Below, piece after piece: positions 11,806-42,745 of a stretch of DNA of 64,000 nucleotides. How positions within the stretch are numbered: the first letter of the stretch is position 1; each line of letters starts with the position of its first letter. The notes below the pieces were generated by a model. That model made no database searches and was not told the origin of the DNA. It saw only the letters and a program-made list of their open reading frames with translations. The DNA is taken from positions 160,424 to 224,423 of the forward strand of contig CBDEGI010000002.1 of NCBI GenBank assembly GCA_965237575.1, given 5' to 3'. The translations under genes were made by a program, and so were the position numbers. The stretch is from Bryobacterales bacterium. Its GTDB lineage: Bacteria; Acidobacteriota; Terriglobia; Bryobacterales; UBA6623.

Positions 11806-11879
11806 TGGCTGGGAGGCAGGGATTCGAACCCCGATAAACAGATCCAGAATCTGCCGTGTTACCGTTACACTACCTCCCA
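11806..11879 (-). tRNA. tRNA-Gln (anticodon CUG), CCA encoded
   Basis: Folded by hand: acceptor TGGGAGG/CCTCCCA, U8, D stem GTGT/ACAC, anticodon stem GCAGA/TCTGT with loop TTCTGGA, T arm CGGGG-TTCGAAT-CCCTG, discriminator G, CCA. Confidence 0.9.
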
Positions 11880-17615: not shown

Positions 17616-17691
17616 GCCACGGTAGCTCAGTTGGTAGAGCAGCGGTTTCGTAAACCGCAGGTCGTCGGTTCGAGTCCGACCCGTGGCTCCA
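17616..17691 (+). tRNA. tRNA-Thr (anticodon CGU), CCA encoded
   Basis: Folded by hand: acceptor GCCACGG/CCGTGGC, D arm GCTC-AGTTGGTA-GAGC, anticodon arm GCGGT-TTCGTAA-ACCGC, T arm GTCGG-TTCGAGT-CCGAC, then TCCA. Confidence 0.9.
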
Positions 17692-28919: not shown

Positions 28920-29091
28920 TCTTTTTGCGAGACCAGGAAGGCTCAGCGTACCAGCGGCAGCGATCGTTCGGTGGCTGTCCTCGATCCCCGTCCTCGATCC
29001 CCCTCAGGCTACCTAGCGAGCAGACTGCGGATTGCCGAGATTTCCGTTCTGGTCTACTGGCCGCGTTCAGCCGCAATTCCCGCCATCGTTC

Positions 29092-30075
29092 TCAACCCGA
29101 GCAGCCCACACACACGGGCGCCAACCCCTCGGAAAAGCCTCCAACGCTTCCATACCTTGGTTGGATGACGAACTTGCCGCGTTTGTTGACGTAACCCCAG
29201 TTCTGCCCGGAGCTTGACGGTCCACAGTCACCGTTACACGCGGCAGCCAGTCCCTGTGAGAACGATCCGACACTCCAGCCTTGAAGTTCCAGGAGAGCTT
29301 TCCCGTTTGAGTCAATGAAAGCAATACCCGCGGTCGTCCGAACGAGAGCCAATCCCTCAGCGAAGTCGCCGGCTCGACGATCCGGCTGAGCCACGATTGC
29401 CAGTTTGCCGCTTCTGTCGATGTAGCCTTGATCTGTCGCGGCGAGGCCCTGGGAAAAGGGGTGCGCCCACGCAAATTGGGGCTCGATGAGAAATTGCCCC
29501 AAACGGTTAATGAACCCGTGTCGCCGTTCGTAAAGATTGTCAGTCCTATCCAAGCTGACCGCAGCGAGTCCCTCGCTAAATGGACCTGATCGACTAAACT
29601 GCAGCGGAATCACGAAATCACCGTTCTTGTTGATGTAGCCTTTGCGGGCTAGTTTGAGGTCCCGGTTACGACAAGGTCCTATGCATACCTCCGCGAGGCC
29701 CTCAGAGAACGGCCGCGCCCAGTTGAACCGCTCAGGGATAACCAGAGTGCCGAGTTTGCCGATGTAGCCAAATAGAGTTCCCGGCTCCCAATATCCCTCT
29801 GAGGGTGTCGATGTTACAACGGCAAGGCCGTCAGAAAATGACGATGCGGAACCATATTGTGGACTGATCACCAATCGCCCGGTGTTGTTGATATAGCCCC
29901 ACTTGCCGTGGACCATCACGGCCGCTAGCCCTTCGGAGAACTCCTGCGCCGATTCAAACTCTGAAGGGATTTGGATGGTTCCAGACTGGTCTATGTAAGC
30001 CCATACCGCCGGGCGTGACGAAGCTGAACTGCAATCCCACAAGCTCATGGCAAGGAGGACCATCCATAGCATCAC
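29092..30075 (-). CDS. WG-repeat (KWG) protein, exported
   Basis: About eight repeats of the form WGYI(D/N)..G..VI.PQ(F/Y)..A..FSEGLA.V. Confidence 0.8.
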   Translation of the reverse strand: MMLWMVLLAMSLWDCSSASSRPAVWAYIDQSGTIQIPSEFESAQEFSEGLAAVMVHGKWGYINNTGRLVISPQYGSASSFSDGLAVVTSTPSEGYWEPGTLFGYIGKLGTLVIPERFNWARPFSEGLAEVCIGPCRNRDLKLARKGYINKNGDFVIPLQFSRSGPFSEGLAAVSLDRTDNLYERRHGFINRLGQFLIEPQFAWAHPFSQGLAATDQGYIDRSGKLAIVAQPDRRAGDFAEGLALVRTTAGIAFIDSNGKALLELQGWSVGSFSQGLAAACNGDCGPSSSGQNWGYVNKRGKFVIQPRYGSVGGFSEGLAPVCVGCSG

Positions 30076-30230
30076 ACATGACTCAGCCCTAGGCCAGGAT
30101 TTCCATTTTGGCCGTCCCGGCAGTGACAGAGTAGCCGGTAGAGCGCTGTTAGGGAACGTTCTTCGCAGGTCCTCCCCGTTCGATCCTCCTGTTTACGCCA
30201 GTCAGGACGTTCAGACTGGGCATCGTCAAG

Positions 30231-30269
30231 ACGATCCGGTGGACGATCCGGTGACGACGATCCGGTGAC
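30231..30269. repeat. short direct repeat ACGATCCGGTG x3 in a non-coding stretch
   Basis: Copies start at 30231, 30243 and 30257, followed by the palindrome GGTGACAGTCACC. Confidence 0.7.
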
Positions 30270-31061
30270 AGTCACCGATCGCCAGAGCCGTGACCGTAAG
30301 GGAGCGGTCCGGCACGAACTCTCACCCCCCGCAAAAAACCGTAGAGTCGAGAGAGAGTTCGGAGCCCGTAGCGCGGATCTCGGTTTTGAGATCCGCGGCC
30401 TTTCACCCAGCACAACTGCCCCGCTCAGTCACAGAAGTTCAAAATTTTTCTCACACGTTGATGTCAATCGACTTACCTTCAATCACCATCACCGGCTCAC
30501 CCCGCCACTCCGACTCCCACGTGCTACTCTCCAGGTGAGGGCTGGTCACATGGTGGCCGGCCCTCATGCGTTTGTCAACATCGAGGCCTCGATGAAGCGC
30601 AAAACAGTGTGCGGTGGCTCCGGCGCAAGCCCGTTGAGAGAACGACTCAGCGGGTGGCAGCCGGCGGCTAGGCGGCCCAAAGTTTGTAGGAAAGGGCCGC
30701 GACGCCCCGGAATCGGTTCCGGCAAGTAAGGATTAGGTTTGGAATGTGGACGGTTGTCTTTGGCAAAGCCGCGGTGAACGCTCAAAGCCCTTGGATTCAG
30801 GGTGAGTAAGCCGGGCCGCGGACCTTTCTTACAACGGTCCGATAGCATTCGAGACCCCCTTCGCACTGCGCCCTAGTAAAATGGGGCGGCCTCGGGGGAC
30901 TCCGCTCATAGAGCCGGAGCCCCCCAGAGGCGACAATCTGGACTTCGACTCACCGTGCAGGATACGTGTCTCTTCCCGGGGTCAGTGGCAATGGCTTCCA
31001 GAAGCCCTGCAGAGGCCTAGGAACAGAAGTAGTAGCCTCTTGTCCCCGACTTTGCGGAAGA

Positions 31062-31376
31062 CTACTCAGCAAGTGTCAACCTAGCTCCCCAAGTGAGACG
31101 GAGGACGCCTCCGATCGCAGAACTGAATCTCAGATGTTCTCCTTGTCGATTGTTGAACTCAAGGATATATTTCCTAGGTGGAGCGCCCGGCTCACCACTC
31201 CTGCTGTAAGTTCGACAGACAGCATCTTTTCTATTTTCACTGATTTCACAGCTTACCCATGCACCGTCATATCGACTGCCAGCCCACTGAGCGGTTTCGA
31301 GGAGGCCCGGTGGCCTTGGTGGAGGGTCTGGATAGTATTCACACGTAATTAGAAACGGAAGTAACACTAAGAGCAT
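31062..31376 (-). CDS. small hypothetical protein, possible lipoprotein
   Basis: The internal ATG 31376 gives MLLVLLPFLITCEYYPDPPP (a lipobox-like LITC). It lies in an AT-richer stretch and I recognise no family. Confidence 0.35.
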   Translation of the reverse strand: MLLVLLPFLITCEYYPDPPPRPPGLLETAQWAGSRYDGAWVSCEISENRKDAVCRTYSRSGEPGAPPRKYILEFNNRQGEHLRFSSAIGGVLRLTWGARLTLAE

Positions 31377-31639
31377 TGCTCTCAAGCATCGATCAACACG
31401 CACTTTGCTATTCCTCGCATCCTTCGATGCCATTGCATCGAACTGTTGCTGTCGGTGTCTCGTCAGGAGGCTGTTGCTGAAAGTTAATTCTCCGCTGGGC
31501 TGACAGCTGGATGATCAAGAGATCGAGTGTTATGGGCGTCTGAATACCGCCTCCGGCGCTTTGAGTGTTGAAGAAATGACGAAGATCTAGGTTTACGCCT
31601 GGTGCTTCTAAAGTACTCAAACAGAAGAAGGTACTGTTC

Positions 31640-31885
31640 CTACCGAGGAGACTGAATGGAGAGAAGTGAGGGACAGGCTACTACTTTTGAGAGTACCATG
31701 GGCCTCCACTCATCAGGAACGCGGATCAGCACAGGGTCAGACTCTCCGGCATCCTTCGCATTCTCGACAGCTTGTGCGTAGTTATCACCGCTGGCAACGA
31801 CGCGGGATTCGTCTTGCGAGAGCGCAACCGACGTGTTGGGAGCTGCACCGGCAAGGATCTTGACTCTTTCTTCAGCGGACATCAC
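31640..31885 (-). CDS. small protein resembling DUF5678 family
   Basis: ...SVALSQDESRVVASGDNYAQAVENAKDAGESDPVLIRVPDEW resembles the DUF5678 pattern (W-V-A-h...V-h-A-x-G-x-x-h-x-E-h...A...G...P-h-h-h-x-V-P). This match is from memory only. Confidence 0.35.
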   Translation of the reverse strand: MMSAEERVKILAGAAPNTSVALSQDESRVVASGDNYAQAVENAKDAGESDPVLIRVPDEWRPMVLSKVVACPSLLSIQSPR

Positions 31886-31942
31886 GCAATCCTCACTCCC
31901 CAGTCTAAATGCTACCGGAGTGCAACGGGGCTCAGCCTCACG

Positions 31943-33133
31943 CTACCGGAACCAGTCGTAGTTCAGGCCCAGTGAGCGGTCCTGGAGCGGCAGCTCCACT
32001 TTCTGTCCGCCCCGCTTGGCGGACTCCTTGAGCGCGATCTCGGTTTCGAGCGCCATGGCGACGCGGCGGCCGGAGTTCTTCGGCTCGTCCAGGCGGCCTT
32101 CCATGCAGGCGATGACGTCATCGAGGCAGTAGATCCCGCCGTAGGGCGGCAGGAACTGCGGTTCGGGCCACGGGGCGGGGACGCGCTGCTTGCCGGTGGG
32201 CGTCTCCATTTCGATGTCGAGCGCCCAAGCACGCTTGTAATCGAAGCGCATCTCTCCCTTGCTGCCATAGAGCCGAACACCCGGCGCTCCTTTGCGGAAG
32301 TGGACGACTTCGTCTTCAGTCGTCACCATCATGCCCTGCCCGCGGAACTCATCGCTGCCGGATTCGCACCGTGACTCGTCGCCATGACCCGTGACCCAAG
32401 CTGGCTTGCCGCGGAGGAAGTACGCCCAGTTCTGATGCTGCGCGAACGGCCCGCTCGCCTCGATGGAGTGCAACTCGCCGATCTCGCCCCCTCCGAGCAA
32501 TTCCTTGGCCTTCGCGAAAGAAGGATGAGTCGTGGTGATGGAGCCGGCGTTGAGCGGAATGTTCTTCTCGGCGCAGGCCTGGACCATGCGGTCAGCCTCT
32601 TCGAGGGTGTGGGACATGGGCTTCTCGACGAAGATGCCCTTGGCTCCCGCCTTGACGGCCTCGACGGTTAGGAAGGAGCGACCCTTGGTGTTGGTGGCGA
32701 TCGCGACGATGTCGAGGTGCGCTGTGGCATACATCTTTAGAGCGTCGTCGTAGAGTTCAACATTGCCATAGCGCTCTTTGAAGGCCTTCAGACGCTGTGG
32801 ATCGAACTCCGCGGCGGCGACGAGCTTCACCTCGGGCCGCGCCCACAACGCCTCGGCGTACGACGTCGGGTTGCCCTCGTTGCCCGGGTGGTCGTGATGG
32901 TTGAACTTGCGGTGGATATCGAGCTTGGGTGTCGGCCGCACTTTGTCCTCGACCTCGAAGCGGTCGGGTATGCGGTCGGCCAAGTCGTAGAGGAGCCCCA
33001 TCCAGCCAAGCCCGACGATCCCGCCACGGTATTTCGGCTCGGCCTCACGAGCAGCGGCCGCGGACGCCGCCGGATTGGCCACCATCGCGGCGGCACCGGT
33101 AATTGCTGTTCCCAAGAATCTTCTTCGAGACAT
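31943..33133 (-). CDS. Gfo/Idh/MocA-family oxidoreductase with Tat signal
   Basis: MSRRRFLGTAITGAAAMVANPAASAAAA is followed by the Rossmann segment GIVGLGWMG and ...HLDIVAIATNTKGRSFLTVEAVKAGAKGIFVEKPMSHTLEEADRMV. Confidence 0.8.
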   Translation of the reverse strand: MSRRRFLGTAITGAAAMVANPAASAAAAREAEPKYRGGIVGLGWMGLLYDLADRIPDRFEVEDKVRPTPKLDIHRKFNHHDHPGNEGNPTSYAEALWARPEVKLVAAAEFDPQRLKAFKERYGNVELYDDALKMYATAHLDIVAIATNTKGRSFLTVEAVKAGAKGIFVEKPMSHTLEEADRMVQACAEKNIPLNAGSITTTHPSFAKAKELLGGGEIGELHSIEASGPFAQHQNWAYFLRGKPAWVTGHGDESRCESGSDEFRGQGMMVTTEDEVVHFRKGAPGVRLYGSKGEMRFDYKRAWALDIEMETPTGKQRVPAPWPEPQFLPPYGGIYCLDDVIACMEGRLDEPKNSGRRVAMALETEIALKESAKRGGQKVELPLQDRSLGLNYDWFR

Positions 33134-33287
33134 CGTCCAGCCTCCTAGCCCGGCGCTACGGGTCTCTCACTGCTCTTGCCAGCCGACGCCGATCGAATTG
33201 AATCTTCGCATGCTTGCACCGCTTCTGCTTGGGCCGTTTCCTCAACTCAACCTAGGAGGCTCGCAAGGTGCAGTGATCTTGGAAGAC

Positions 33288-33313
33288 GGGCACGGCATGC
33301 CGTGCCCCTACAT
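33288..33313. repeat. intergenic palindromic element, copy B
   Basis: GGGCACGGCATGCCGTGCCC is a perfect 20-bp palindrome, followed by CTACAT and preceded by GGAAGAC. It sits in the divergent region between 31943-33133(-) and 33537(+). Confidence 0.9.
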
Positions 33314-33536
33314 GTGAACATGGATCCTGCCAGAGTAATTCGCAAGAGTCAGCAGTCGTCGACCACGTCGTTGAGATTGTAACGCTACCAATCGCGCGAA
33401 CCTTCTCGCCGAAGGTGTCTGTTACGATATTCCCGGTCAGCCACATAGTGCGCAGATCCGCCAGAACCGAGTAGGAAAAACCGATGCCGCATCCCAGACC
33501 ACTCCAGCTCCTCACCTCAACCGTCTTGGAGGCCCC

Positions 33537-34373
33537 ATGCTGAAAGTGCTGAATGAACGAGCCGTCGAGCAGTACAAGCGGGATGGATACTACTTCCCGG
33601 TCAAGATGCTCGACGATGAGCAAGTCGCGGCCAACCGAACGCTTCTGGAGAATTTCGAAACCAGTCAAGGCAAACCCATTGGGGGAGCGCTGCGGAATAA
33701 ATCTCATTTGCTGTTCACGTGGGTCGACGACCTGATGCGCCATCCGAAGATCCTCGATGCGGTCGAGGATCTGATTGGGGCCGATATCCTTTGCTGGAAC
33801 ACCTTCTTCTGGGTCAAGGAGCCCGGAAGCGAGAGTTTCGTCTCGTGGCATCAGGACCTGCGCTATTGGGGCCTCGACACCGACGACCTGGTCAGCGTGT
33901 GGCTGGCGCTATCCCCGGCAACGCTCGAGAGCGGATGCATGCGCGTACTGCCGGGCAGTCACCAAGGCGATCTCCTACCCCACAAAGATGAATTCAAGGA
34001 GAACAATCTCTTAACGCGCGGGCAGGAAATCTCGGTCGAGGTGGACGAAGCGAAGGCCGTGGCCATGCCGCTGCAACCGGGTGAGATGTCGATGCACAAC
34101 GTACGGTTGGCTCATGCATCGGGTCCCAACCGGTCCACCGATCGGCGGATCGGCCTCTCGCTGCACTACATGCCCACGCGCACGAAACAGGTTGTCGGCG
34201 AGTGGGACAGTGCGGCTCTTGTCCGCGGCGAGGACCGGCACGGTCACTTTACGCTCGCGCCACGTCCCTCTAAGGACTTCGATCCAGCCGCGGTGGCGTT
34301 TCACGAGAAAGCTACCCAGGCCATTCGCGACGTGCTGTTCAAGGACGCCGCGAAAGTCCGTCCGACGCTCTGA
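33537..34373 (+). CDS. phytanoyl-CoA dioxygenase (PhyH) family Fe(II)/2-oxoglutarate oxygenase
   Basis: QYKRDGYYFPVKML, SWHQDLRYWGL, VSVWLALSPAT and MHNVRLAHASGPN match the PhyH family. Confidence 0.8.
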   Translation: MLKVLNERAVEQYKRDGYYFPVKMLDDEQVAANRTLLENFETSQGKPIGGALRNKSHLLFTWVDDLMRHPKILDAVEDLIGADILCWNTFFWVKEPGSESFVSWHQDLRYWGLDTDDLVSVWLALSPATLESGCMRVLPGSHQGDLLPHKDEFKENNLLTRGQEISVEVDEAKAVAMPLQPGEMSMHNVRLAHASGPNRSTDRRIGLSLHYMPTRTKQVVGEWDSAALVRGEDRHGHFTLAPRPSKDFDPAAVAFHEKATQAIRDVLFKDAAKVRPTL

Positions 34374-34432
34374 CTCGCCTGCAAGTCACCCTGCAAGGCG
34401 GACCGTTCAACTCACCCGCGAAGGAGAGCGAC

Positions 34433-35614
34433 ATGAAATTACACGGCGTCATGCCGGCGCTGATCACCCCGTTCGACTCTGACAATCGAGTGTCGGAGCC
34501 GATGCTGCGGCGCTTGGTGGATCACTATGCCGGAATCGGCATGCACGGGCTGTACGTCTGCGGCGGTACGGGCGAGGGCATTCTGCTGACGGTCGAGGAA
34601 CGAAAAAGGGTCACCGAAATCGTGGTCGATGAGGCTCGCGGACGTCTTGCGGTAATCGTTCACGTGGGCGCAGTGGGCACCACGGACGCCGCCGAGTTGG
34701 CAGCACACGCCGGGCCGGCCGGCGCCGACGCCATTTCGAGTGTGCCGCCGTTTTACTATCGCGTCAGTACCGAAGCGATCTTCCAGCACTACTCCGCCAT
34801 CGCGGAACGATCGAGCCTGCCTTTCCTGCTCTACAACATGCCCGCGTCGACCGGGGTCACCGTCACTCCCGACATGATGAAGCGCTTCCTGGATATCCCG
34901 ACCGTTGCAGGGATGAAGTTCTCTTCCTACAACCTCTTTCAGATGCGCCAAATCCTGGAACTCGAGCCCGGCCGCATGACGGTGTTCTCGGGGAACGACG
35001 AGGTCTTCTTGGCGGCACTCGCAATGGGCGCCCAGGGAGCGATTGGTCTGACACTCAACTTCATGCCCAAGCTATTCCTCGATACGTATTCCCACTTCCA
35101 AGCAGGTCGCGTCGAAGCGGCTCAACAGAGCCAGTTCTTGGCGAATCGCGTCAAATGGGGTATCCACTTGACTCAGGTAGCCCCTAGGCGTTGTGGTTTG
35201 GTCGATCCATGGACGCCAGCACACTGCACCCAGAATGCACCCTGGGGCGCCAGACGCCGGTCTGCAGGCAATTGGGCCACGAGGCTGCGTTTCGGGGCCG
35301 ATCAAGGATTACGCACGCGCCATGGCCATCGCAGGCTTGGAAACGTGGTGCTATCGGCAAGCCTTTCCGGGGGCCGCCAATGGCCAACCACAGTATGTTG
35401 TGGTCACCTGAGTCAAATGGATACCCCACTTCGCGTCATTGGGGTGATCCTTCAATACAACTCACTTTCGGCGGGCAAAGAGGTCATGCGCTTCAAAGGG
35501 TATGACTGCGGCTTTGGCCGTGGTCCGATCGAGAGACTCACAGAGGAGCAAAAGAGAGAGCTTCGCGAGCAACTGGAAGCAACGGGCTACTTTGACTCGG
35601 ACGTCGGACTCTGA
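34433..35614 (+). CDS. dihydrodipicolinate synthase/N-acetylneuraminate lyase family protein carrying an in-frame 95-codon MITE insertion
   Basis: GVMPALITPF, GLYVCGGTGEG, YNMP and GMKFSS give the DapA/NanA fold up to ...FLANRV. About 95 unrelated codons follow, and the family-typical tail then resumes as IGVILQYNSLSAGKEVMRFKGYDCGFGRGPIERLTEEQ. Confidence 0.85.
   Translation: MKLHGVMPALITPFDSDNRVSEPMLRRLVDHYAGIGMHGLYVCGGTGEGILLTVEERKRVTEIVVDEARGRLAVIVHVGAVGTTDAAELAAHAGPAGADAISSVPPFYYRVSTEAIFQHYSAIAERSSLPFLLYNMPASTGVTVTPDMMKRFLDIPTVAGMKFSSYNLFQMRQILELEPGRMTVFSGNDEVFLAALAMGAQGAIGLTLNFMPKLFLDTYSHFQAGRVEAAQQSQFLANRVKWGIHLTQVAPRRCGLVDPWTPAHCTQNAPWGARRRSAGNWATRLRFGADQGLRTRHGHRRLGNVVLSASLSGGRQWPTTVCCGHLSQMDTPLRVIGVILQYNSLSAGKEVMRFKGYDCGFGRGPIERLTEEQKRELREQLEATGYFDSDVGL
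35153..35431. mobile_element. MITE (non-autonomous element, 279 bp) with 26-bp terminal inverted repeats
   Basis: The left end is AAATGGGGTATCCACTTGACTCAGGT (35153-35178). The reverse complement of 35406-35431 is AAGTGGGGTATCCATTTGACTCAGGT (24/26). It is flanked by direct CGCGTC(A) at 35147-35152 and 35432-35437. Deleting the element plus one duplicate restores ...ANRVIGVILQYN.... Confidence 0.85.
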
Positions 35615-35748
35615 CGGTACGGCCTGTCGATTGGTCTGACGGGTGGCTCGGGGCCCGCGATGATCGGGAGGAAGGGCACGCTGATACACTGTCGTCGAAA
35701 CCTCTGCCTGTTTCTACCAAGGGTGCTGTGGTTTCGGAAGGAAGGGTC

Positions 35749-35784
35749 AACGTCATGAACAACGTCATGAACAGCGTCATGAAA
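35749..35784 (+). repeat. 12-bp tandem repeat x3
   Basis: The units are AACGTCATGAAC / AACGTCATGAAC / AGCGTCATGAAA. Each contains an ATG, and they lie just upstream of the BNR fragment at 35805. Confidence 0.9.
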
Positions 35785-35804
35785 CCAGGAACTCACGCCA
35801 GTCT

Positions 35805-36335
35805 TTGGTGCTGTTGGTTGCCCTGATCGTGACGGGGACTGTTGTGACGGGGCCTTTATCGGGCCAGCAGGCCCCCGAGCTACACCAGCGGTTCGTCGCG
35901 ATCGACAACGTTTGTGCCTGGCCGAACGTGACCCTCTTGAAGGACGGAACGTTGACGGCGACCATCTTCAATCAGCCGTCCCACGGGCGTGTGGAAGGCG
36001 ATGTCGAAACCTGGATCAGCACCGACGGCGGCCTCTTGTGGGAGCGCAGCGGCGTCCCTGCGGTACACGAGCCGGGGACGAATCGTCTCAATGTCGCCGC
36101 CGGCAGGGCGCATGACGGCTCGCTCGTGGTGCTCTCCTCCGGAACGAGCAACATGGAACCTCGGGGCGGAAGCACAACCGATGGCCTCTGGGATTGGCTG
36201 CCGATCCTGGTTTCGCGGTCGTGGGACCGGGGACGAACCTGGCAACGCTCCTCTTCAGTGGAGTTGCCCGACGGCGTCGATTACATGATTCCTTTCGGCG
36301 ACATCATTGCCGGCAACGTAATAGGCGATCAGTAG
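35805..36335 (+). pseudogene. BNR/Asp-box sialidase-like protein, N-terminal half only
   Basis: The hydrophobic leader is LVLLVALIVTGTVVTG and the Asp-boxes are STDGGLLWE and SRSWDRGRTWQ. The ORF ends 13 codons after PFGDI, where it meets an opposite-strand paralogue. The only ATGs upstream are in another frame (MNNVMNSVMKPGTHAS...), which suggests an additional 5' frameshift. Confidence 0.6.
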
Positions 36336-37074
36336 ACGCCCATCTTCGAACTGGAGGCGCGGCGGGGTACCCGCAATCGCGCATGTCGAGATCGACGAGT
36401 CTGCGGGGGGAATCCCACGTGCGCCCGTAGTCTTCGCTGATCCGGAGGTCAATTCCGTAGTTGCCCGGGCTTCGGTTGCCGTAAGTTAGGGCAATCCGCC
36501 CGTCGGAGAGTCTGAGCAGATGGGCTGCTGAGGTGGAGGGAATGCCCAAGGTCCGCTCGTGACGCCAAGTGAAGCCATCGTCTTCGGAAGCGTGCACGTC
36601 AAGGTCCAGGTAGCCGAATCGGCGGGACACGGCCAACCAATGGCTATCCCCTGTATGAAGGATGGCCGCCTCGACATGGATGTCTTTGACGATCGGCGTC
36701 ACTTCATCCCAGGTCATGCCCCCGTCTTTGCTGCGAATCACGTAGACATGGCCTTCGCGGCTGCGGCCGCTGCTTTCCGGAGTCCAATCATGGGTGTAGA
36801 CTCCGGCCACGAAGTCGCCGTTTGCCGCAGTCAGAATGTCGCCGAAGGGCACCAAGCTGGACGTCACCCCGTTTGAAAGGGTCACCGAGGTCGGCATCGT
36901 TTCGGTGATCTGAGCGGCGTGATGGCCGGGAAATGCGAGATCGCCCGGCTCGTCTTCGGCATCCCTTCGTTTAAGATCCCCCGGGTCACGATCTTCATGA
37001 GACTTTCCCCACGATGATTGAAAGGGATTCCCTAGGTCACCCAAACCGTAGCGGACTGCGGTTGCCAGATGCAA
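36304..37074 (-). pseudogene. BNR/Asp-box sialidase-like protein, C-terminal two thirds, frameshifted near its end
   Basis: The Asp-boxes are SKDGGMTWD, SEDDGFTWR and SEDYGRTWD. After ...MRDCGYPA the family-typical RLQFEDGRLLIAYY continues in another frame (shift near 36360-36366). N-terminal similarity to the + copy starts only at TSVTLSNGVTSSLVPFGDI. Confidence 0.6.
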
Positions 37075-38506
37075 CCATCCGAGCGCCCCGATTCGGTCTT
37101 ATGTCAGGATTGGCTTGACTACGTTGCCGTGCACGTCGGTGAGTCGAAAGTCCCGGCCGCTGTAGTGAGGTCAGTTTCGTGTGGTCCAGGCCGAGCAGGT
37201 GAAGAATGGTGGCGTGCAGGTCGTGAACATGCACGGGGTTTTCGACGGCCGTGTAGCCGAACTCGTCCGTGGCCCCGTAGGTCATGCCGCCCTTGACGCC
37301 GCCGCCCGCCAACAGGACCGTGAAGCCCAATGAGTTGTGGTTGCGCCCGTTGGTGAGTTGGGAGTTTCGCTGTAGCTCGACCGCCGGGGTGCGGCCGAAT
37401 TCACTCCCCACGACGATGAGGGTCTCTTCGAAGAGGCCACGGGCCTTGAGGTCGGCAACAAGCGTTGCGATGGCGGGATCGGCCTCCGCGGCCAGGCGCT
37501 TGTGAGCCATGATGTCGCCGTGGCTGTCCCAGGGCTGGACCTTGCCGAAATAAACCTGCACCATGCGGACGCCGTGCTCCACCATGCGCCGCGCCATTAG
37601 GCAGGCGCGGCCGAAGTCGCTCTTGCCATAACCATCCCGTACCGCTCTCGGCTCCCTCGCGATGTCAAACACCTCGGGCGCCTGCATCTGCATGCGGAAC
37701 GCAGTCTCCATCGTCTCGATCGACGCCTCGAGCTGCGAATCCCCTTCGCGCGAGGTCAGGTGCCTGCGATTCAGACGCTCGAGCAGGTCGAGTTGCCGGC
37801 GCTGCACGTCGTGACTGAAGCGCTTGTTTCGGATATATCGGATCAGCTTCTGCGGATCCTTCTCATCGGTGCGAATATGGGTTCCCTGGTAGACGGCCGG
37901 CAGGAAAGCCGACTCCCACAAGGGCGGTCCGACCGTGGGCACACCCGGACATAGAACGACAAATCCGGGAAGGTTGCGGTTCTCGGTGCCGAGCCCGTAC
38001 GTGATCCACGATCCCATGGAAGGGCGGCCCGGCTGGAGCGCTCCGCAGTTCATCATGAACAGTCCCGGCTCGTGGTTGGGCACCCCCATGTGCATCGAGC
38101 GGATGACGCAAAAGTCATCGATGATTTCGCCCACCTGAGGGAACAGCTCGCTCACCTCGATCCCGCTTTGCCCGTACCTGTGGAAGTCAAACGGTGACTT
38201 CATCAGGGTCCCGACTCGGCCGTCGTCGGCGTCGGTCTTGGGCGTGCCTCCGGGCATCGGCTCACCGTCGTATTTGGCGAGCGCCGGCTTGGGGTCAAAG
38301 GTATCCACCTGCGACCAACCGCCGTTCATCATCAGAAAGATGACGTTCTTGACGCGGGGCTCGAAGTGGGGCGGTTTCGGGTCGAAGGGCCCGGTTGTCG
38401 CCGCCTTCAGGTTGGCCAGTCCCAGCGCGCCAAAGCCGCTCCCAAGCTGGGCCAATAGCTCGCGGCGGCTGAGTGAGCGCGGCAGGTGGGGGCTGTAAAC
38501 GGCCAT
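37037..38506 (-). CDS. DUF1501 protein (Tat-like signal); probable 1-nt frameshift close to the 3' end
   Basis: LSRRELLAQLGSGFGALG, VIFLMMNGGWSQVDTFDPKP and GSEFGRTP are present. After ...LGLDHTKLT the listed frame reads SLQRPGLSTHRR..., while the adjacent frame reads HYSGRDFRLTDVHGNVVKPILT* (stop at 37099-37101). The latter is the usual DUF1501 C-terminus. Confidence 0.85.
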   Translation of the reverse strand: MAVYSPHLPRSLSRRELLAQLGSGFGALGLANLKAATTGPFDPKPPHFEPRVKNVIFLMMNGGWSQVDTFDPKPALAKYDGEPMPGGTPKTDADDGRVGTLMKSPFDFHRYGQSGIEVSELFPQVGEIIDDFCVIRSMHMGVPNHEPGLFMMNCGALQPGRPSMGSWITYGLGTENRNLPGFVVLCPGVPTVGPPLWESAFLPAVYQGTHIRTDEKDPQKLIRYIRNKRFSHDVQRRQLDLLERLNRRHLTSREGDSQLEASIETMETAFRMQMQAPEVFDIAREPRAVRDGYGKSDFGRACLMARRMVEHGVRMVQVYFGKVQPWDSHGDIMAHKRLAAEADPAIATLVADLKARGLFEETLIVVGSEFGRTPAVELQRNSQLTNGRNHNSLGFTVLLAGGGVKGGMTYGATDEFGYTAVENPVHVHDLHATILHLLGLDHTKLTSLQRPGLSTHRRARQRSQANPDIRPNRGARMVASGNRSPLRFG

Positions 38507-38510
38507 AGCG

Positions 38511-41303
38511 TCAATCCACGAAGGCGAACTCGTTGGAGCTTAGCAAGACCTGCGCGTACTGCGTCCATCCATCCTCGCCGGCGGAGGCGAGAAAGTCGAG
38601 ACCGTCCTGCACGTCCGAGGCGGAGCCCTCACGGGCGTAGAGGAGCCGATGCGCCTCCTTGATCGACTTGGCGTCGCTCTCGCCCGTGCGGACACGCGCC
38701 GCCAGGGCTTCGGACTGATTCAGAATGAAGTCGCTGTTGAGGAAGAACAGGCGCTGCAGCGGCACGTTCGTGACGACGCGACGCGCGCTACTGGCGCTGG
38801 GGTTCGGGAAGTCGAAAAGGGAGAGTGTCTCATCCGGACGAAAGCGCTGCACTCTCCCGTAGACCGTCCGGCGCTGGTTGTCGGCGGACAACTCGGCGGA
38901 AGCGCCGCCCTGCTTTGGGTCGAGGCGTCCGGAAACGAACAACGTAGCGTCTCGCATGGCTTCTATATCGAGTCGGCGGCGGTTGGCGCGCCAGAAGAAG
39001 CGATTATCGGGGTCGGCCGTCTCGTTCGCCTTCGAGCGGTCACTGCGCGCCTGGTAGGTTTTGGAGAAGACGATCTCCCGAATGAGCGTCTTGATCGACC
39101 AGTTCCGGTCAACCAGACGCCAGGCCAGGTATTCGAGCAATTCCGGATTCGACGGCCTGGCTCCCGTCCGCCCGAAGTTGCTTGGCGTTCGCACCACGCC
39201 GCTTCCAAAGAGGTGCTGCCAAACACGGTTCGCCATGACACGCGCGGCCAGCGGATGCCCGACGATCGCTTCAGCCAGTTGCAGGCGCCCACTCCCGTTG
39301 CGGAGGGGCCTGGGTTCGGCGTCGCTCAGCACGGCCAGAAATCGTCGCGGAACTTCCTCCCCATCCACAAACGGGTTGCCGCGGGGATTCAACCTAGCGT
39401 TCCAAGGTTGCTTCCAATCCTCAATGCCAGGCAGGAAGGGATAGTGATCGGGCAGCTTCGCTTTTTTTTCTTTGAGCTCAGCTCGGAGCGACTCGAGGTG
39501 CTGCTTCCACTCGCCCTGCAGGAAGCGTTCGACCTCTTCCCCTTGATAGCGCAGGACAGGCTTACCCCTGCCGAGAACAGGGTTCCAAGCCAAGTAGCGG
39601 TCTCGCGCCATCTGCTTGGTATCGACGTCGTCGTATTTGAAACTGTCTCCCGAGGTGTATCCCTTGGGAAGCCGTGCTAGCTCCTTCTCCTCGCGATTCA
39701 GGCGGGCAACGAGGATTCGAGTCTCTTCTTGAATCTTCTCGTGTTCTTCGGCGAGCGAAACGACCAACGCTTGATAGTCGTCCGCGACCTGCCGGACTTC
39801 CGCCTCGGTGGCGGAGCCGTCCCGCAGCAACCGTTGCCAGGCATCCAAGTACGGATGTCCTTCGTGAGGCTTGTCAAGATATTTGACCCAGCGCTCCAGA
39901 GTCTTGCGGTCAAGCTTGCTCCGGCGGGCAACTTCGTCGACCTTGCAAGCCACCTCGTCCTCGTCGGTCTCACCCGCCGACAGAACCCGCCAGGAGGCGA
40001 CCACGTAGTCGGAGGTGCGCCGAATGAAGATGCGAGTCAGGTCGTCGGCCTGCCGCTCGAGGAAGCCGTTGATCTTCTTCTCGAGATCCTTGATCTCTTT
40101 TTCTTGTCGTTCGTACTCCTCGATGACCTGCTCGGAGGCCAGCGGATAGCTCTTATAGTGAACGCTCGCGAAGACCCCGGCTAGGCCGTAATAGTCTTCC
40201 ATCGAGATCGGGTCGTATTTGTGGTCGTGACATCTCGCACAGGCCGCCGTCAAACCAAGAAAGCCACGCGATACCATGTCCACTCGTTCATGCCGCTCGT
40301 CCGCGCGAGCCTGAGGAGGATGAGATATGCCGTAGTACCAGGGCCCAAGCCCAAACAGGCCCAGGCCGCCCAGCATCTCGCGATTGTCCCCCTGCATGAG
40401 ATCAGCGGCAATCTGGGCCTTCACAAACACGTCGTACGGCATGTCCGAGTTGAAGGCCTCGATCACCCAGTCGCGGTAGCGCCAGGCCTGGGGGTATTCT
40501 GCGATTCCAACGCCGTGATAGTCATTCTCGCCGTAGCGGGCCACATCGAGCCAGTAACGGCCCCAGCGCTCGCCGAAGTGCGGAGAAGCGAGCAAGCCGT
40601 CAACGACTTTCGCAAAGGCCCGAGGGGAGTCGTCCGATAAGAAGGCGGTCACGTCCTGCGGAGTAGGGGGGAGGCCAATCAGATCGAAACTCACGCGGCG
40701 AAGCAAGGTCCTCTTCGCGGCCGGAGGATTGGGCTTCAGCCCGTTCTTCTGTAAGCTTGCCTTGACCAACCGGTCTATGGGCGAGGCTTGGTCAATCGGC
40801 GAGGCGGTGTCGACCAGCGGTTTCTTGATGGGCTGGAACGACCAGAAGGCCCGGTCTTCCTGGGTGATCACCGTCCCGTCAAGCCGCTCAGCTTCGTCCG
40901 GCACCTCTGGCCACATTGCGCCCTGCTGGATCCAAGCGGCCAAACTCTGAATCTCTTGCGGGCTCAACTGCCCGGACGGCGGCATCTTCAAAGTCGCGTG
41001 AGAATGCCGTACGGCTTGCACGAGCAGGCTGGACTCCGGATCCCCCGGGACGATGGCCGGCCCCTGGCTACCACCGCGCAACAGGCGGTCACGGGAGTCG
41101 ACCCGCAGGCCGGACGTCTCCAATTCTCCATGGCAACTTGAACACTTCTCCGACAGCAGCGGCCGGATGGTGCGTTCGAAGAGTTGCGCAGAGTCTTGGC
41201 CCTGAGCGTGGGCGGCATGCAAAAAGACGAGGACGCAGAAAGGCGCCATCCACCGGAGAAGGAATAAGGCGGGAAGAAGGCTTCGCACTCGTGGCTCCGC
41301 CAA
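38511..41303 (-). CDS. planctomycete-type cytochrome c (PSCyt1) + DUF1549 + DUF1553 protein
   Basis: CSSCHG...GGSQGPAIVPGDPESSLLVQAV...MPP is the heme-c domain. LLRRVSFDLIGLPPTPQDVTAFL...HFGERWGRYWLDVARY is DUF1549 and CARCHDHKYDPISMEDYYGLAGVF is DUF1553. Confidence 0.9.
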   Translation of the reverse strand: MAEPRVRSLLPALFLLRWMAPFCVLVFLHAAHAQGQDSAQLFERTIRPLLSEKCSSCHGELETSGLRVDSRDRLLRGGSQGPAIVPGDPESSLLVQAVRHSHATLKMPPSGQLSPQEIQSLAAWIQQGAMWPEVPDEAERLDGTVITQEDRAFWSFQPIKKPLVDTASPIDQASPIDRLVKASLQKNGLKPNPPAAKRTLLRRVSFDLIGLPPTPQDVTAFLSDDSPRAFAKVVDGLLASPHFGERWGRYWLDVARYGENDYHGVGIAEYPQAWRYRDWVIEAFNSDMPYDVFVKAQIAADLMQGDNREMLGGLGLFGLGPWYYGISHPPQARADERHERVDMVSRGFLGLTAACARCHDHKYDPISMEDYYGLAGVFASVHYKSYPLASEQVIEEYERQEKEIKDLEKKINGFLERQADDLTRIFIRRTSDYVVASWRVLSAGETDEDEVACKVDEVARRSKLDRKTLERWVKYLDKPHEGHPYLDAWQRLLRDGSATEAEVRQVADDYQALVVSLAEEHEKIQEETRILVARLNREEKELARLPKGYTSGDSFKYDDVDTKQMARDRYLAWNPVLGRGKPVLRYQGEEVERFLQGEWKQHLESLRAELKEKKAKLPDHYPFLPGIEDWKQPWNARLNPRGNPFVDGEEVPRRFLAVLSDAEPRPLRNGSGRLQLAEAIVGHPLAARVMANRVWQHLFGSGVVRTPSNFGRTGARPSNPELLEYLAWRLVDRNWSIKTLIREIVFSKTYQARSDRSKANETADPDNRFFWRANRRRLDIEAMRDATLFVSGRLDPKQGGASAELSADNQRRTVYGRVQRFRPDETLSLFDFPNPSASSARRVVTNVPLQRLFFLNSDFILNQSEALAARVRTGESDAKSIKEAHRLLYAREGSASDVQDGLDFLASAGEDGWTQYAQVLLSSNEFAFVD

Positions 41304-41554
41304 CAGTATGGCACACCACCGGACAAGCGGCGATCCACTTCACCGTTTGGTGCAGCGATTTCGCAAAGCGGTCACGGCAGAACCTGAAGGTGGTTGATTC
41401 GGCGGCGTTTGGGGTGGGGATGGAGCCGGAGCCCTGTTTTGCACGGCCCTCGACCGCCCGCGCAGGGCTGATTGTGGAGACCGACGACAAGGCTCCGGGC
41501 GCCTGCGGGGCAGGTGCTGGGCCGGCGTGGAGCCTGCGACGAACGGCCCTGGGA

Positions 41555-42745
41555 TCAACTCGAATCCAGCAGCTCCACCACCAACCCGTAGGCCAGTTGG
41601 CGCGCCACCGCACCAACACCCGGTGCACGCCGACCCTCCCGAGGCCGCACTTGACGGTGATAGAACACTTGCGTCAGCAAGTACGCCAGCAAACGAATCA
41701 TCCTCAGCACCACCAGCGCTTGCGGATGGCTCTGGTGCACCGACGGCTGCTTGAGATGGGCCTCGGTCGTCATCGTCTGAAACAGACTCGTCTCGATCGA
41801 CCAGCGGCTGCGACCGATCTGATGGAGGAACCAGGGCGGGATGGCCCCCCACTCGATGTTGCTGGCGTAAAAGTCGGTGCTTTCTTTTTGCTCGGCTTGC
41901 TGGACCGGTTGCTGCTCGACGATCGTGACGCGCCGCCGGGTCTGCTTGCGCTTGCACTCGACGACGCCCACCGTCCGGTTCGCCACCGGCCACTCCACGG
42001 CCGGCTCATGCCACAGCCAGCGTTGCTCCTCGGCGCTGTCTTCGCGCAGATCCTCCCCCCCAGCGGTGCGCCGCTCGGCCTCGGCCAACAGCCGGGGCTG
42101 GTTGTCTTTGAGGTTGATCACCCACTCCAGCCCCAACGCTTCCAGGGCCGTGACGAAGGGGGTTTCCAAGTACAGCGCGTCGGCCACCAGCAGGTCGAAA
42201 AAACGGCGGCCCAAGCGTTGCACCAACTCTTCGACCAGCGCCAGCCCGCACGCCACTTCCCCTTCGCCGGGTTTTTGAAAACGCAGGCCCAAGGGAACCG
42301 CGAAGCTCGAGCTGACCACCGAGACGACGACCACGCGATGGTAGTACTGCGTGCACTCGATGGTCTCGCCGTGGACTTTGCGTTCGACCGTTCGTGCCGA
42401 ACAGCGCGAGCAGCAACGGCGATAGGAGCGAGCGATCTCGATGCCGTCGAGCGCGGCGACGACGCGACCGCGGGCCCACCTCGACCCCAACACACCATTC
42501 CGTTTCAGCCGCCGCGCCAGCCGACAGCCCAGCTCGAACAGCGCAGCCGGGTCCTGGCGCTCGAGGGTGTAACGCAGCGCGTCTTCGGAGAGCGGACCGA
42601 TGCGTTTCCACAGCGCCCCCTGACGGCATTCGGCCTCGATCGCATGCAGGCCGGGCCACTGGCAGGCGCAACCCAAAAACACGGCATCAAAGAGGCGCGA
42701 CAGGGCAATGCGCGGCGCCGAACGTCCGTCGGGCAAAGCCGCCAC
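41555..42745 (-). CDS. DDE transposase (IS4/ISKra4-like; family assignment uncertain)
   Basis: A 396-aa ORF with LDGIEIARSYRRCCSRCSARTV..., ...FDLLVADALYLETPFV... and ...GRSRWSIETSLFQTMTTEAHLK. The listed start is an internal GTG. The frame stays open upstream to 42828, overlapping the 3' end of the preceding ORF. Confidence 0.75.
   Translation of the reverse strand: MAALPDGRSAPRIALSRLFDAVFLGCACQWPGLHAIEAECRQGALWKRIGPLSEDALRYTLERQDPAALFELGCRLARRLKRNGVLGSRWARGRVVAALDGIEIARSYRRCCSRCSARTVERKVHGETIECTQYYHRVVVVSVVSSSFAVPLGLRFQKPGEGEVACGLALVEELVQRLGRRFFDLLVADALYLETPFVTALEALGLEWVINLKDNQPRLLAEAERRTAGGEDLREDSAEEQRWLWHEPAVEWPVANRTVGVVECKRKQTRRRVTIVEQQPVQQAEQKESTDFYASNIEWGAIPPWFLHQIGRSRWSIETSLFQTMTTEAHLKQPSVHQSHPQALVVLRMIRLLAYLLTQVFYHRQVRPREGRRAPGVGAVARQLAYGLVVELLDSS

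Follow-up and report, generated by a model that had tools for sequence, protein, structure and literature searches.

An IS1595-like MITE inside a nanA-like gene of a Bryobacterales bacterium, and the extra G that leaves the host reading frame open

Introduction

[quoted passage not shown] Elements of the IS1595 family of insertion sequences, which make direct repeats of 8 bp (7–9 bp in some groups: PMC12561309), include among their derivatives a catalogued MITE, the 165-bp ISHwa6-related element of Haloquadratum walsbyi, with inverted repeats of 25 and direct repeats of 8 (PMC3852290, Table 4). Here we describe a MITE that lies in frame, and without stop codons, within a nanA-like gene on a 64-kb stretch of DNA from a Bryobacterales bacterium (contig CBDEGI010000002.1). 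This whole stretch is called the window in what follows, and all positions are 1-based on it unless another contig is named. By far the best explanation of the locus is, in our view, that an IS1595-derived MITE was inserted recently and that the open reading frame (ORF) of its host has stayed open through one extra G.

The element and its borders

At the locus the order is ...GGCGAA-TCGCGTCA-AATGGGGTATCCACTTGACTCAGGT...ACCTGAGTCAAATGGATACCCCACT-TCGCGTCA-TTGGGG... (Table 1), and the element is a MITE: it is small, non-coding and multi-copy, has terminal inverted repeats, and is flanked by an 8-bp duplication. The inverted repeats, of 25–26 nt, are identical at 24 of 26 positions. In the 64-kb window the 26-mer occurs exactly twice, in inverted orientation and with 0 and 2 mismatches, where dinucleotide-preserving shuffles lead one to expect 0.00 occurrences, and no further site resembling the repeat was found in the window with up to 5 mismatches allowed. 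A first-pass annotation, made from the letters of the window, had described a 279-bp element with 26-bp inverted repeats matching at 24 positions, a direct duplication of 6–7 bp, and no autonomous element with matching ends in the window. The repeats, the existence of the duplication and the lack of a matching autonomous element all hold good, but the sizes do not: the empty site, and sister copies that have 8-bp duplications at the same borders, fix the element at 277 bp and the duplication at 8 bp. This correction leaves untouched the 285 bp (95 codons) that, as the annotation had proposed, the MITE and one duplication together add, and its further claim, that no stop in the host frame interrupts the 393-amino-acid (aa) ORF, can be read directly in 34433–35614. 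The host frame is in fact the only one of the six in which the element has no stop codon.

The translation of the 95-aa insert had no match in Pfam, the region around the element had none in Rfam at E<=1, and a scan for promoters and terminators inside the element found nothing. A full-length palindrome test, which considered the centre of the element as a possible hotspot for insertions and deletions (indels), detected pairing at the ends only. The G+C content at the three codon positions is 0.62/0.63/0.56 in the insert and 0.62/0.42/0.74 in the host gene, and the 95-residue peptide is of unusual composition (isoelectric point 11.8, net charge +11, 13 Arg, 11 Gly, 5 Trp, 4 Cys and no Glu). 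On these compositional grounds the insert peptide looks like translated non-coding DNA, unlike evolved coding sequence. The RNA of the insert folds strongly (-140.5 kcal/mol, z = -4.85), as might be anticipated because long terminal inverted repeats produce such folds.

Table 1. Positions of the MITE, its host gene and its other copies (window coordinates unless a contig is named)
Feature	Position	Strand	Remarks
Host gene, NanA-like; class I aldolase, DHDPS family	34433..35614	+	393 aa with insert, 298 aa without
Left target-site duplication copy TCGCGTCA, 8 bp	35146..35153	.	single copy at the empty site of L084–L089
MITE	35154..35430	+	277 bp here, 276 bp in the family consensus
Left terminal inverted repeat AATGGGGTATCCACTTGACTCAGGT	35154..35178	+	core GGGGTATCCAYTTGACTCAGG common to ~1,035-bp IS1595-family elements
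G-run	35294..35297	+	GGGG here, GGG in every other sampled copy (DNA and translated copies)
Right terminal inverted repeat	35406..35430	-	2 positions unlike the left repeat
TGA in right repeat	35409..35411	+	stop for the consensus element in the host frame; 325-aa product ending VVVT
ATG in right repeat, in the host frame (in frame with 34433)	35417..35419	+	remnant start codon for gene callers at other copies
Right target-site duplication copy TCGCGTCA, 8 bp	35431..35438	.	from sequence reading and empty-site comparison
Other MITE copies	L084-type site; L093 8225-8500, 10149-10424; L094 10059-10334; L095 10233-10508, 19271-19546		

An empty site in near-identical genomes

Searching for homologues of the 393-aa product brought up a protein of 298 aa (P0001) that agrees letter for letter with the product predicted by excision of the element. 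Seven contigs, drawn from several ENA metagenome assemblies, encode it, and the gene order on these contigs is that of the window (Gfo/Idh/MocA, PhyH, DHDPS, a 175-aa ORF, BNR_2, DUF1501 and PSCyt/PSD1). Six contigs (L084–L089) were compared as DNA: they are ~99.9% identical to 28992–41612 of the window, and at the site they read GGCGAATCGCGTCATTGGGG, a precise empty site with one TCGCGTCA. More distant alleles, at 96–98% identity (P0002, P0140 and P0142–P0144), are likewise without the insert, as are all other homologues found, which are of ~298 aa. The first-pass annotation had left the choice between a recent insertion and a tolerated 95-residue insertion, and had named conservation of the 95 residues in orthologues as the outcome that would overturn its interpretation. 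The residues turn out not to be conserved there, and the near-identical contigs with their exact empty site come down on the side of recency. Because contigs of ~99.9% identity retain both the exact empty site and the 298-aa product, these comparisons firmly support the view that the insertion into the nanA-like gene is very recent and specific to one strain.

A difference in the opposite direction is found a short distance away. At 2632–2907 of L084 (and also in L085–L087) there is a 276-bp copy of the MITE that departs from the window copy by one 1-nt gap, and for this copy it is the window that is empty, with a single CACACGTA at 31340–31347, which lies 3.8 kb upstream of the interrupted gene. 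The element is mobile, and its insertions are polymorphic between strains. A scan of JGI metagenomes with a gapped pattern spanning the G-run of the element gave 0 matches; the lineage seems to be absent from that collection.

The extra G and the reading frame

The sister DNA copies are all 276 bp long and read TTTCGGGCCG, where the window copy reads TTTCGGGGCCG. The same difference is apparent in translation: copies known from protein sequences that span the G-run shift frame exactly there (ATRLRFG|PIKDY, EAAFR|ADQGL and, for the reverse strand, ILDRP|ETQPRG). The fourth G is thus unique to the window among the copies sampled, and its consequence is simple. A consensus element with its duplication adds 276 + 8 = 284 bp; this number cannot be divided by 3 and so brings about a frameshift, whereas the extra G makes the addition 285 bp and leaves the 393-aa ORF open. 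When insertion of the consensus element into the host gene was simulated, the product was 325 aa long and stopped at the TGA of the right repeat, and the ending that results (...QPQYVVVT, then the stop) is also that of P0121–P0127, P0132 and P0138. The in-frame, stop-free state is a property of this copy, not of the element family.

There are 225 positions (35186–35410) at which one inserted nucleotide would reopen the frame, which makes the element easy to repair. Indels in other copies are occasional and mostly at G-runs, as in P0128, in P0137 and in a variant lacking TT that is shared by P0046 and P0081. In each of the last two, two adjacent MITE copies lie in one ORF, and it is the second that has the 2-nt (TT) deletion, beside the same G-run and with frame 0 open; the central part of the element may therefore be a hotspot for indels. 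In the DNA around the insertion, by comparison, there were zero single-base indels when 12.4 kb of the window was set against six other assemblies. The differences over that distance consist of a few single-nucleotide polymorphisms, one repeat unit of 14 nt that differs at 30482, and the deletion of 2 nt at 37167, and in the light of this a sequencing error is not favoured as the origin of the extra G.

The IS1595 family as likely parent

The core of the terminal repeat, GGGGTATCCAYTTGACTCAGG, was scanned for in one genome per species and found at no fewer than 83 loci, mostly in Bryobacterales; among the matches listed there are 45 inverted pairs ~1,010–1,040 bp apart with 8-bp duplications. 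Elements of ~1,035 bp sharing the repeat core of the MITE are present both in Bryobacterales and in other genomes. The ORF of one of them (L037; 310 aa) matches the NCBIfam model for IS1595 transposases, NF033547, at 207 bits (cutoff 75), and also carries the Pfam domains DDE_Tnp_IS1595 (PF12762) and Zn_ribbon_IS1595 (PF12760). Closer to the window, a 6.2-Mb ENA contig (L090) whose orthologue of the host gene is 97% identical has two tandem intact IS1595-family elements beside that orthologue, with a transposase 78% identical to that of L037 and a repeat core differing from the core of the MITE at 2 of 21 positions.

When the MITE was compared by BLASTN with the 83 genome loci, only its ends matched. 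The match to the sampled full-length elements extends over the terminal 45–54 bp of the MITE, and the interior is unrelated to them; next to each terminus the MITE has some likeness to the transposase-stop end of the parent elements, but this is a weak observation. By its shared ends and 8-bp duplications the MITE can be assigned, as a sequence-based classification, to the derivatives of the IS1595 family.

Other copies of the MITE

Copies were counted at loci other than those of the window's own genome. Six other DNA copies, at five loci (Table 1), show 0 mismatches and one 1-nt gap against the window copy, and most of the other MITE copies are flanked by 8-bp duplications. Searches with the translated element, on both strands, yielded 27 more small ORFs reading into copies, with at least 10 different flanks. 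None of these 27 ORFs contains a Pfam domain, and none has a domain on both sides of the element. All the other intragenic copies that were sampled truncate the ORF of their host.

Among the genes interrupted are one for flagellin, after codon 19 (L094 10001–12696), one for an Mrr-type nuclease (L095 10001–11193) and one for a methyltransferase (L093 10001–11072). The remnants that have been called as genes at two of these places (L094 10321, flagellin; L095 10495, Mrr_cat) begin 13 nt before the element ends, at the ATG of the right repeat.

Two further MITE families came to light. One, of ~255 bp, is present in the sister contigs (at about 191–446 in L084 and L085) and absent from the window, which has a single TGCCGCGT at 29175–29182. 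It has related ends (GGGGTATGCACTTGACTCCCG) and an 8-bp duplication, and its left end resembles the transposase-start end of IS1595 elements. The other, of 278–279 bp, occurs in metagenome-assembled genomes of Bryobacterales (L001, L002, L014, L017–L019, L023, L039, L040 and others; 22 loci among the matches listed). It shares the terminal ~50 bp and the 8-bp duplications with the window MITE, but its interior is unrelated.

The host gene and its predicted product

In the 393-aa product, the Pfam profile for the DHDPS family (PF00701) matches residues 3–234 (profile positions 2–233 of 289; 222 bits, 7.9e-66), a match that ends exactly where the element begins. In the 298-aa product of excision in silico it extends over positions 2–288 of 289 (237 bits, 2.5e-70). 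That excision would restore the normal sequence of the family had been claimed in the first-pass annotation, and the end-to-end match, with its rise in score from 222 to 237 bits, is just what that claim leads one to expect. Membership of the PF00701 family is clear, but the protein reaches the cutoff neither of the NanA nor of the DapA equivalogs. Its top NCBIfam match, to the N-acetylneuraminate lyase model PRK04147, scores 249.4 bits, below the cutoff of 281; TIGR00683 gives 214.9 against a cutoff of 382; and the DapA equivalog gives 188 bits against 206. The nearest solved structures are those of Escherichia coli NanA (~1e-54), and BNR/sialidase-like genes adjoin the host gene.

In alignments, the Schiff-base lysine (Lys162), Tyr134 and the GxTGE motif are invariant columns, all of them upstream of the insert and intact, and K162 and Y134 line up with the active-site motifs of NanA. 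Like NanA, of the DHDPS/N-acetylneuraminate lyase family of class I aldolases, the host protein has a (beta/alpha)8 barrel followed by three C-terminal helices, and it shares the conserved Schiff-base lysine and catalytic tyrosine; with scores below both equivalog cutoffs, it is called NanA-like. The structural model of the 298-aa form (predicted local-distance difference test, pLDDT, 96.1) places the helices at 227–244, 249–259 and 276–288. The insertion point lies between codons 240 and 241 (V240|I241), corresponding to ...ECNKV|IDLLIK... in E. coli NanA, and so falls within the first C-terminal helix, which is continuous in this model. Alignment with NanA, a comparison of the kind that the first-pass annotation had suggested as a way to see where the 95 residues land, together with the models puts them outside the barrel.

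In the model of the 393-aa form the host parts have pLDDT >90, residues 240–331 have pLDDT 24–34 and are without secondary structure, and the first C-terminal helix is broken into 227–238 and 335–340. As modelled, the product, if made, keeps an intact catalytic barrel and carries a probably disordered loop rich in Arg, Gly and Trp. We infer that such a product would be at best partly functional, and that the locus is under relaxed constraint.

Proposed history and its rivals

How might this allele have come about? The MITE would be a non-autonomous deletion derivative of an IS1595-family insertion sequence. A DDE transposase of that family, presumably supplied in trans, would have recognised the 25–26-nt terminal repeats and pasted the element between codons 240 and 241, at a cut staggered by 8 bp (TCGCGTCA), so duplicating the 8-mer, and the extra G may have arisen by slippage, either before or after the insertion. 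Some observations sit less comfortably with this history. The insert-bearing allele is represented in one assembly only (P0141, listed in both NCBI and ENA, probably as the same record); the closest intact transposase found is that of a relative, and the repeats there are not identical to those of the MITE; the copy at L093 8225–8500 has no duplication, and two copies have only 7 matching bases at the chosen borders; and the extra G sits in a homopolymer, which is a classic spot for sequencing error.

Readings of the extra G differ in the meaning that they give to it. A neutral slip, or the arrival of the element from a rare 277-bp donor copy, takes up the likelihood that is left by the two readings considered next. 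Under the first of these, the G would be a selected +1 suppressor: a 276-bp copy broke the gene, and a slip in the G-run that reopened the frame was favoured since the lyase, or translation into the downstream genes, still matters, so that the 95 residues would represent a newborn segment of protein. Consistent with this, the copy matches the master over all 276 bp with 0 mismatches, and its sole change, found in no other sampled copy, is of the frame-restoring kind in a region where the 12.4-kb flanks have no single-base indel relative to six assemblies; moreover, the catalytic barrel is intact, the insert lying near the end of a helix outside it. Against this must be set the ease of the outcome, 225 positions being open to a sufficient +1 change, and the fact that G-run indels are the main variation among copies, also where no gene is at stake (P0128, P0137 and P0046/P0081). 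Constraint on the locus seems relaxed, too: next to the host gene, the window has a DUF1501 gene with a frameshift of 2 nt, and the L090 orthologue is cut off by another insertion sequence. Finally, a disordered loop of charge +11 within a helix may well be damaging. On balance we regard selection for the G as possible but rather doubtful.

The idea that the G is a homopolymer error of sequencing or assembly, in which case the gene would be an ordinary insertional pseudogene with a 325-aa product, seems improbable. It would accord with a single-base difference in a G-run in an allele known from one assembly, and the scattered G-run indels of other copies could be errors too, but the same zero count of single-base indels over 12.4 kb speaks against it, the step from GGG to GGGG is short for a homopolymer error, and, where a repeat has many copies, read polishing would be expected to pull towards GGG, not away from it. 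That the enzyme has in the 95 residues a native domain or loop specific to its lineage, or a self-splicing element, can be dismissed almost entirely: the insert is in frame, free of stops and strongly folded as RNA, but homologues are of ~298 aa, including alleles of 100% and of 96–98% identity, the composition is not coding-like, and an exact empty site with a single 8-mer, together with identical copies at unrelated loci, refutes it. An intein or self-splicing intron was also considered and rejected, since with no Pfam match for the 95 aa and no Rfam match at E<=1 there is no match to a Hint domain or an intron.

Other features of the neighbourhood

At 37167, within the ORF at 37037–38506 (- strand), the window has a 2-nt (GA) deletion in comparison with L084–L086. 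It shifts the C-terminal tail of the DUF1501 protein, which is of 489 aa here and of 469 aa in relatives, and may be a genuine frameshift or else a fault in the assembly. At 30482 a short tandem repeat is one unit of 14 nt, TCACCATCACCGGC, shorter than in L084 and L085. Three tandem 12-nt units, CAACGTCATGAA, the third with one change, lie at 35748–35783, closely upstream of the next ORF (176 aa) after the nanA-like gene. The PhyH protein encoded beside the host gene clusters at >=90% identity with MCY4588300.1, from a Bryobacterales metagenome-assembled genome.

In L090 (10001–14450) a DDE_Tnp_1_4 insertion sequence takes the place of the 3' end of the orthologue after ...EVMRF, and the BNR genes there have an ISAzo13-type transposase gene in their midst; insertion sequences have a hotspot at this locus. 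In the window itself a gene for a 396-aa transposase of DDE_Tnp_1 type, at 41555–42745 (- strand), belongs to a 90%-identity cluster with 34 members on many contigs, which points to another insertion sequence that is multi-copy in the lineage. Over the whole window, Rfam at the gathering threshold and ARAGORN gave only two tRNA genes, tRNA-Gln(CTG) at 11806–11879 (- strand) and tRNA-Thr(CGT) at 17616–17691 (+ strand).

Significance and comparison with known systems

Taking the locus as a recent insertion of an IS1595-derived MITE whose host ORF is open through an extra G, we have from a poorly studied soil lineage a complete natural set: the site with the element and exactly the same site without it, sister copies that are identical, and a family that is a candidate for the parent. 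In this population MITEs of IS1595 type are now active in a burst, striking genes such as those for flagellin, a methyltransferase and a nuclease in sister genomes. Should the extra G prove both real and selected, this would be a tractable case of protein sequence born from transposon DNA, and if it is a suppressor, then the ancestral allele, donor-type copies and the repaired allele would all be extant in one natural population. There is also a caution for annotators: what is called a 'DHDPS family protein' of 393 aa is chimaeric, and one base decides whether its gene is called intact or a pseudogene.

The closest known counterparts of the element are IS1595-family MITEs, for instance the ISHwa6-related MITE of Haloquadratum. 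Like the latter, the window MITE is short, non-coding and multi-copy, with repeats of ~25 nt and an 8-bp duplication, and, as in IS1595-family MITEs, its ends match full-length IS1595-family elements with zinc-ribbon and DDE transposases. The two differ in host (here Bryobacterales, of the Acidobacteriota) and in size (276/277 bp here).

As to the fusion, the likeness is to the RPEs, ERIC, BOX and the QMITEs: in each case a small palindromic mobile element sits in a protein-coding gene with the frame kept, and here it adds a peptide to an enzyme. RPE inserts are roughly 30–50 aa long, and the present one is longer, at 95 aa. The RPE families are built for in-frame insertion, which recurs across many genes; the window family, whose consensus adds 284 bp, is not so built, and it is in this respect that the case differs from the RPEs. 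The other sampled intragenic copies of the window family truncate their host ORFs, and the insertion in the nanA-like gene is polymorphic between strains, not fixed.

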